From Eledone cirrhosa (taxonomy: Eukaryota), in contig OZ024748.1 in NCBI GenBank assembly GCA_964016885.1, positions 21,700,001 through 21,764,000 of the forward strand: a DNA stretch of 64,000 nt. The letters are read 5' to 3'. Both the position numbers and the translations under genes were made by a program. Under the pieces are notes generated by a model. That model saw nothing but the letters and a program-made list of their open reading frames with translations. It was not told where the DNA came from and ran no database searches. Positions 12,441 through 57,266 of the stretch are shown piece by piece. Each line of letters opens with the position of its first letter. Within the stretch, counting starts at the first letter, position 1.

Positions 12441-12952
12441 TTAAATAATGAGACAGAGATGAATCTTTTTTTGCTTAATGTGTAAGGCCAGATTCTCAAT
12501 CTTCAGAAGTTGGACATTATTGCTGTTACCGGCATTAAACACTCTGTACACATGATAACTGGCCAGTTTTTTATTAGCAAATTCTATCTCCTTGTTGGAT
12601 ATTTCAAAAATTGATTTTTTTTCTGAACGTGTACTTTTCACTTCAATATATTCCTCATGAAAAGACTGGCCTCCATTTTGATCTCTCTGTTTCAGCACAA
12701 CTTTTATATCATAGGGTTGTCCAGTTTCTTGTAATTCATTCTCCCAGTTGATACTGTAGATAAAACTTTCAGCTTTGGTCTTCTGCTGCAACAAATAATT
12801 AAACACCAAATGTTCACCCCACCGAGCTGTCATGACATTGCAGTCTGTTGAACTAGGGTCAAGAGTGTATTGCTCTGGTATGACCAACTCGTCTCCTCTT
12901 GCTAGTTCCTTGTATTCGAGATCTTTACAGCCTTCTAACCAAATTGGGAAAT
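12441..12952 (-). CDS. NOV-like terminal exon, DUF3883 (NOV_C) PD-(D/E)xK nuclease-like domain
   Basis: [41 protein letters not shown] at 12441. Confidence 0.92.

Positions 12953-57266: not shown

Follow-up and report, generated by a model that had tools for sequence, protein, structure and literature searches.

The window, the 64,000-nucleotide stretch of Eledone cirrhosa DNA analysed here, carries on its minus strand an intact gene that sequence comparison places in the Tiamat/NO VEIN family, which unites the NO VEIN proteins of animals and plants with the bacterial antiviral protein Tiamat. The gene is not new; it is one more intact member of a family already described (octopod NO VEIN). 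A second copy in the same genome matters more than the window gene: it would be a natural experiment, with the putative RNA-binding end expanded and the nuclease lost. Known from one assembly and one probable RNA run, this copy hints that the LOTUS-ATPase part can serve some purpose by itself.

The window gene and its family

The coding blocks were placed by tblastn with the Octopus vulgaris orthologue (P0004), and the splice sites were then chosen by script against the same protein.

12441..57266, minus strand: NO VEIN/Tiamat gene, 33 coding exons, 2,909 aa, 78.8% identity to O. vulgaris P0004

The model runs from an ATG at 57266 to a TAA finishing at 12441 and joins 8,730 nt of coding sequence into 2,909 aa with no internal stop, reproducing exactly the intact frame of 33 exons and ~2909 aa described in an earlier note on this DNA. 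Thirty-one introns have GT-AG borders and one (intron 20) has GC-AG; the second copy shares the GC at this donor (window 31722). Eleven nt 5' of the ATG there is an AG acceptor, and O. sinensis and O. vulgaris isoforms continue through it, so the first coding exon is probably an internal exon with a further exon upstream.

The protein shares 78.8% global identity with P0004 and 78.7% with the O. sinensis 'protein NO VEIN'; the figure falls to 64.7% for Argonauta P0005 and to 32–33% for four fish proteins. The window gene is the orthologue of NCBI 'protein NO VEIN' of Octopus sinensis, and orthologues of the same length are annotated. The PADLOC TmtA models match the ATPase exon (seven models, E 1.8e-28) and the nuclease exon (two models, E 1.4e-23), while exon 25 alone has no PADLOC TmtA match. 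In the O. vulgaris orthologue, PADLOC PDLC03972 (TmtA) matches across aa 1186–2455 with E 2.4e-133. The O. sinensis isoform X3 (P0164, 2,148 aa) begins after the LOTUS region, and by this annotation LOTUS-less forms may arise from a single gene.

The earlier note had pointed to prokaryotic conflict systems and defence. This lead was right and can be made more specific, as Tiamat/NO VEIN with TmtA matches, but the novelty does not stand, since the mollusc members of the family, their fusion to LOTUS domains, and the proposed link to RNA granules were already presented in two bioRxiv preprints dated 1 Oct 2026 (10.64898/2026.09.30.754977, 10.64898/2026.09.30.755639). The first of these reports Tiamat homologues in 50–80% of mollusc, cnidarian, and water-mould proteomes and LOTUS fusions in 316 of 918 eukaryotic Tiamat sequences, molluscs included; it describes the gene as seemingly vertically inherited and conserved across animals (10.64898/2026.09.30.754977). 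Animal NOVs with LOTUS domains are also reported in the second (10.64898/2026.09.30.755639). The word 'octopus' is absent from the main text of 10.64898/2026.09.30.754977, and none of the papers listed by a literature search on 'protein NO VEIN' in molluscs contains the name. The earlier note's remark that no animal member has been characterised biochemically holds in the literature searched, the two preprints included.

Window 12401–22600, which spans seven of the 32 junctions, was compared with the contigs of four of the 15 listed sequencing runs. Eleven of the 15 runs contain only 5–6% of the words, and no habitat claim is drawn from them. In one contig each of X2 and X4, runs from related organisms that we guess to be RNA, exon 26 abuts exon 27, and part of exon 30 follows ~310 nt beyond the exon 26–27 stretch (322 expected). 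A contig of X13, a run of 88 million letters whose kind is not recorded, stops exactly at the exon 33 acceptor (12952), and the large run X12 reads through there. The joint read table for window 12401–22600, which is swamped by repeats, displays none of these introns. Splice support is partial: within this part of the window, it covers the exon 26–27 join and the exon 33 acceptor edge. Logan contigs of 9.3–11.8 kb from a relative carry full-length frames of ~2,950 aa, which fits a single spliced transcript. Exon 30 contains a 21-bp coding repeat in 4.4 copies (window 18306–18398), making the linker longer than in O. vulgaris, and the letters of run X13 differ at this repeat.

The window as a whole is AT-rich animal DNA with many microsatellites. 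The 3' exons of a ubiquitin-specific protease (Pfam UCH; window:8078-11101, plus strand) are convergent with the NO VEIN gene and end ~1.3 kb from its stop, and the upstream neighbour, ~22 kb away, is a WD40-repeat gene (exons at L035:5646-7291, minus strand). Decayed LINE-like fragments, mainly intronic, lie at window:13661-14591, 21131-21496, 40182-40940, 49986-50537, and 6272-7097, one of them with reverse-transcriptase and PHD-like matches. Long minisatellites occupy window:25052-26559 (27-bp unit, 56 copies), 3502-6117 (54–67-bp units), 2557-3068 (34-bp unit, 15 copies), and 22607-23044 (41-bp unit, 11 copies). The 41-bp array is far longer in the second copy.

Domain architecture and a proposed mechanism

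From the N- to the C-terminus, the following features are recognised (all on the minus strand).

57020..57277, minus strand: first coding exon from its AG acceptor, 258 nt, phase 1-1, with LOTUS repeat 1 (aa 10–82)
55387..55608, minus strand: LOTUS repeat 2, aa 92–165, exon 2; Pfam OST-HTH 24.5 bits (cut-off 23.8)
55051..55278, minus strand: LOTUS repeat 3, aa 202–277, exon 2; OST-HTH E 0.0039 (below the cut-off alone) and our own HMM
46452..54650, minus strand: eukaryote-specific N-terminal region, ~aa 330–1090, end of exon 2 to exon 10; 84% identity to O. vulgaris
32299..43557, minus strand: GHKL (sacsin-type) ATPase and transducer, ~aa 1186–1590, exons 12–19; SACS, NCBIfam, TmtA, and conservation
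21575..31958, minus strand: region between the ATPase and the linker; covered by TmtA profiles in P0004
15189..20944, minus strand: low-complexity linker, exons 29–32; 53% identity to O. vulgaris
15208..15255, minus strand: bipartite-NLS-like motif, aa 2718–2733, exon 32; pattern match
12441..12952, minus strand: exon 33, NOV_C/DUF3883 PD-(D/E)xK nuclease with E2786, D2821, E2843, and K2845 and a predicted C-terminal dimerising strand

The LOTUS domains, the Bergerat (sacsin-type) ATPase fold, and the intact E...PYD...EVK C-terminal domain read by the earlier note are all borne out. On the window exons, Pfam OST-HTH scores 35.6 bits over two stretches of exon 2 (cut-off 23.8). Repeat 1 has no Pfam match, but the model made for it with a nine-row alignment (pLDDT 89.4) predicts a LOTUS fold, superposing on the TDRD7 and TDRD5 LOTUS structures with Z 10.7 and an rmsd of 2.0–2.4 over 74–75 residues. 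Tejas (Z 8.6), MARF1 (8.2), and unrelated winged helices (7.9 or less) follow, and Foldseek with the same model gives no significant E-value (best 0.064). A single-sequence fold of repeats 2–3 was set aside as support (pLDDT 44.7; Foldseek LOTUS entries at E 0.58 or worse). With an HMM built from the octopod repeats, other homologues from molluscs and fish are seen to begin with between one and four repeats of this type, and four LOTUS domains are reported for zebrafish Tiamat (10.64898/2026.09.30.754977). The N-terminal region at 46452..54650 is conserved among animals and probably corresponds to three motifs, as yet unannotated, that the plant preprint describes for NOV. For the middle region, the definition of Tiamat in 10.64898/2026.09.30.754977 includes TPR-like, Fold B, and metalloprotease-like folds.

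In the ATPase region, Pfam SACS matches exons 12 and 13 with 24.8 and 27.8 bits, each under the 32.8 cut-off (E 2.2e-5 and 2.8e-6), and reaches 53.7 bits on the whole orthologue P0004; the NCBIfam sacsin and HSP90 models match here too. Compared by sequence with solved structures, the ATPase exon finds Hsp90-family chains at E 0.55–0.83, which is not significant. Pfam NOV_C scores 71.5 bits on exon 33 (cut-off 22.1). The motifs quoted in the earlier note are all present: ELIQNADD (aa 1240), NNEVGF (1278), GKSTK (1295), GQKGIGFKS (1308), and TKIILPL (1362) in the ATPase, and RWGE (2783), QPYDI (2818), and IEVKST (2842) in the nuclease. The key ATPase residues are E1240, N1244, D1247, G1282, G1295, G1308/G1311/G1313, and T1362; R1508 is our own candidate for the transducer arginine. 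E1240, N1244, D1247, G1282, G1308, G1311, G1313, and R1508 are identical in 25/25 full-length homologues, as are the nuclease residues E2786, D2821, E2843, and K2845. The roles of these residues are presumed from the general GHKL and PD-(D/E)xK motifs, together with the description in the Tiamat preprint.

A search with the nuclease exon yields 823 relatives with an E-value of 0.001 or lower. Among the best 150 of these, E2786 is kept in 145/146 rows with a residue at that position, D2821 in 148/148, E2843 in 148/150, and K2845 in 150/150. The nuclease profile has no convincing relative by sequence among solved structures; sorting nexin-27 and eS25 (E 0.01–0.07) were taken as chance matches. 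A PD-(D/E)xK fold is therefore assigned from Pfam, motif conservation, and the preprint (10.64898/2026.09.30.754977). When two copies of the nuclease exon are modelled together, the score is 0.40 against 0.12 for the best control, with an interface at exon residues 165–171, at least 81% contact agreement between runs, and pLDDT of at least 80. In calibration, this mark was passed by 21/30 solved pairs and 0/23 single chains from microbes and by 17/29 and 0/30 from eukaryotes, and a pass may stem from likeness to solved structures. The predicted homodimer, formed through the last beta-strand, accords with the interface predicted in the preprint (10.64898/2026.09.30.754977).

These data bear on the reading that the protein is a scaffold with no catalytic activity, or that the gene is a pseudogene or a spurious chain of exons. 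The read comparison reaches only seven of 32 junctions and activity is so far predicted, which leaves some room for it; however, the 8,730 stop-free nt with canonical splice sites, the annotated orthologues of the same length, the 2,950-aa frames on 9.3–11.8 kb Logan contigs, and the invariant catalytic residues largely refute this reading, and we consider it very improbable.

What is observed is the unbroken frame, the order of the domains, membership in the family, and conservation of the ATPase and nuclease residues. On this basis, we tentatively favour, with a confidence somewhat under even, a model in which the window product is an ATP-cycled dimeric clamp with a nuclease that cuts single-stranded DNA, positioned or restrained through LOTUS-RNA contacts, in cell-intrinsic defence against foreign DNA. 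The ATPase heads would close on ATP while the C-terminal nuclease dimer persists; that ATP is hydrolysed is taken from the bacterial homologue. A trigger met by the middle region, a putative sensor, or by the LOTUS end would lead to cleavage of exposed single-stranded DNA by the C-terminal nuclease, again by analogy with the bacterial enzyme. At the other end of the protein, RNA binding by LOTUS is likely; the three domains may bind G-rich RNA rather than Vasa and so place or restrain the enzyme.

Several observations favour this model. Besides the TmtA match, the invariant residues, and the dimer prediction, B. cereus Tiamat has been reported to be an ATPase that cleaves ssDNA, weakly nicks dsDNA, and leaves ssRNA uncut, and the ATPase glutamate is needed for defence in bacterial Tiamat (10.64898/2026.09.30.754977). 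The same preprint proposes that in eukaryotes the N-terminus senses RNA and the DNase is retained; by its own statement, eukaryotic homologues were outside its antiviral assays. Knockdown of NOV in Nicotiana benthamiana raises PVX accumulation and blunts defence-gene induction (10.64898/2026.09.30.755639), and the gene is reported in the preprints to have been patchily lost, in tetrapods and in most ecdysozoans. The LOTUS and middle regions change faster than the catalytic domains (65–78% against 88–89% identity to O. vulgaris), the lineage has duplicated the gene with LOTUS amplification, and a minimal LOTUS binds G4 RNA and not Vasa (PMC7498356). The model is weakened by the reports that plant NOV is nuclear and essential for the embryo and development, that its knockdown was without effect on two other virus infections, and that the authors favour a transcriptional role for it (10.64898/2026.09.30.755639); vertical conservation also suits a housekeeping gene. 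Both preprints ask if the Tiamat homologues of animals have kept an antiviral role, a question to which the window gene alone gives no answer.

A rival that we hold to be nearly as likely follows what has been proposed for plant NOV: the same enzyme would have been exapted to act in the nucleus, in the expression of genes or the maintenance of the genome, and any effect on infection would be indirect. Besides the nuclear location, the embryo requirement, and the role of plant NOV in full defence-gene induction, it draws on the broad expression reported for fish orthologues (10.64898/2026.09.30.754977), the single intact copy in this genome, and the bipartite-NLS-like motif before the nuclease. 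Three octopod proteins carry this motif, and other molluscs have looser basic motifs. The strict pattern, however, is found here and in only two of 25 full-length homologues, both octopods; the losses in tetrapods, most ecdysozoans, and one crucifer also speak against such a factor, and the LOTUS amplification of the second copy is atypical of a housekeeping gene. The pattern used for aa 2718–2733 is the bipartite NLS consensus.

The best structural matches of repeat 1 (TDRD7, TDRD5, Tejas, MARF1) would also suit a germ-granule component that is recruited by Vasa and cuts transposon RNA. A P-body localisation predicted for more than 20% of eukaryotic members, and zebrafish expression that includes testis, point the same way (10.64898/2026.09.30.754977). 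The Vasa-binding eLOTUS, however, needs a C-terminal helix (PMC7498356), and repeat 1 passes into repeat 2 after ~9 residues, leaving no room for it; in the second copy, the repeat 1-type exon is followed by the next repeat. After repeats 2 and 3, no extra C-terminal helix is visible in a low-confidence model (pLDDT 44.7). Pfam finds no Tudor or other piRNA-pathway domain in the window exons or the orthologue, and ssRNA is left uncut by bacterial Tiamat. We therefore regard the germ-granule reading as improbable. The earlier note's suggestion of recruitment to RNA granules is, in its general form, already in print as the P-body prediction. Its germ-granule form is weakened by the lack of ssRNA cleavage by the bacterial enzyme and of space for the helix, and by the NLS-like motif and the nuclear location of plant NOV.

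A second copy with a LOTUS-exon array

Genome searches with exons 2, 12, 25, 26, and 33 each found one additional place, and the search with exon 1 found ten. For exons 30 and 32 no second place was found, so that each occurs once in the genome. The additional pieces lie in order on three unplaced contigs: C895 (exons 1–20), C259 (exons 21–28), and C206 (exon 33).

C895:42309-59028, plus strand: ten tandem frame-preserving LOTUS exons, 261 or 258 nt, AG to GT, phase 1-1, stop-free
C895:59761-114435, plus strand: second copy, exons 2–20
C259:53318-15342, minus strand: second copy, exons 21–28
C206:8651-9141, plus strand: second copy, exon 33

The ends of the three contigs show no mutual overlap, and exons 29–32 were not found on the contig parts searched; we infer that the three belong to one gene. 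Exons 2–27 keep their splice sites and are free of stops, with two indels in all, both in frame. Two stops interrupt exon 28, of which the first falls immediately beyond the folded middle region, 46 nt upstream of the donor. Exon 33 is frameshifted, with a 16-nt deletion following the EVK motif. In vertebrates, a stop within ~50 nt of the last junction escapes decay, and by this rule the exon 28 stop may escape it as well.

The exon amplified tenfold in this copy is the first coding exon of the window gene. Six identical exons recur at a ~1,968-bp period, in near-identical units that differ by 0–10 bases, and four are older variants. Units so alike may be miscounted in the assembly. The five distinct exons are 64–72% identical to window repeat 1, and because of this identity they are taken as LOTUS; Pfam on these five gives a sub-threshold OST-HTH match in one (E 0.19). 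Splicing of all exons would yield a protein of ~3,290 aa that has twelve LOTUS domains and an intact ATPase but lacks the nuclease and the exon 32 motif. Among 877 candidates of 1,595–5,075 aa, residues 1–290 of P0004 match only P0004 and P0005, a weak indication that no other octopod protein among them has an expanded LOTUS N-terminus.

We consider a paralogue likelier than a haplotig of the window gene. Most ATPase exons are 98–100% identical between the copies and the contigs are unplaced, as would be expected of a haplotig. Against this less likely reading, the spans differ 2.3- to 4.3-fold (54.7 vs 23.9 kb for exons 2–20 and 38.0 vs 8.9 kb for exons 21–28), exon 28 is 82% and exon 1 80–84% identical, and neither neighbour gene of the window matches the three contigs. 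The patchwork of identity, from 100% to 82%, suggests gene conversion.

An X13 contig with 15 differences and 23 gaps corresponds to exon 33 of the second copy (depth 57.6 against 88.5 for the window copy, contig depths being no guide to copy number). The variant letters of X13 are those of the second copy at 7/7 listed exon 26–27 sites and 2/3 exon 33 sites, so the second copy is transcribed if X13 is RNA. The related organisms of X2 and X4 have the same letters as the second copy at the listed exon 26–27 sites. The pN/pS ratio of the second copy is 0.69 for exons 2–27, 1.03 for exons 27–28, and 0.89 for exon 33, and the chance of its remaining stop-free under neutrality is 0.096, 0.047, 0.011, or 0.001 for 58, 80, 116, or 159 branch changes. 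These values weakly suggest selection on the second copy, and gene conversion would also account for the intact frame.

A two-part system can be imagined in which the intact protein is the nuclease and its partner is the recently duplicated, nuclease-less paralogue with twelve LOTUS domains. The two would associate by way of their nearly identical ATPase heads, and the paralogue would serve as a decoy, a brake, or a variable sensor of RNA. The ten frame-preserving LOTUS exons could then be spliced in any combination. We regard this arrangement as unlikely.

Comparison with known systems

Sacsin shares the SACS-type ATPase with the window protein, but it has three ATPase units, a J-domain, and HEPN, whereas the window protein has one ATPase and a NOV_C end; membership in the sacsin family is not indicated by Pfam on P0004, which finds one SACS stretch and no DnaJ or HEPN. 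TDRD5/TDRD7, Oskar, and MARF1 share the LOTUS winged-helix fold. Unlike them, the window protein has no Tudor, NYN, OSK, or visible eLOTUS helix, and its LOTUS domains are fused to an ATPase and a predicted DNase-type nuclease.

Arabidopsis NO VEIN (NOV) has the same core from ATPase to nuclease and a long N-terminal extension reported to be common with animals, but land-plant NOV is reported to be without LOTUS domains. Bacterial Tiamat (TmtA, B. cereus prototype) has the same GHKL ATPase, long middle region, and C-terminal DUF3883/NOV_C nuclease; in comparison, the window protein extends ~1,185 residues further at its N-terminus, where the three LOTUS domains lie, and its gene has 32 introns.

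The closest relatives are the animal NO VEIN/LOTUS-Tiamat proteins (XP_036366467.1, CAI9734952.1, GAB1610178.1, and fish wu:fj29h11), with the same architecture, length, and catalytic residues; O. sinensis XP_036366467.1 and O. vulgaris CAI9734952.1 show 79% identity to the window protein. The window gene has no material difference from them, and what the E. cirrhosa genome adds is the nuclease-less copy with the LOTUS array. Nuclease-less LOTUS forms are already in print, while a LOTUS-exon array or a copy pair is without report in the literature searched, and the main text of 10.64898/2026.09.30.754977 makes no mention of exon arrays or paired copies. The second copy would encode the same architecture as the Type VIII-A Tiamat-like proteins of that preprint (LOTUS and ATPase, no nuclease), from which it differs in having twelve LOTUS domains, drawn from a tandem exon array, beside an intact copy.
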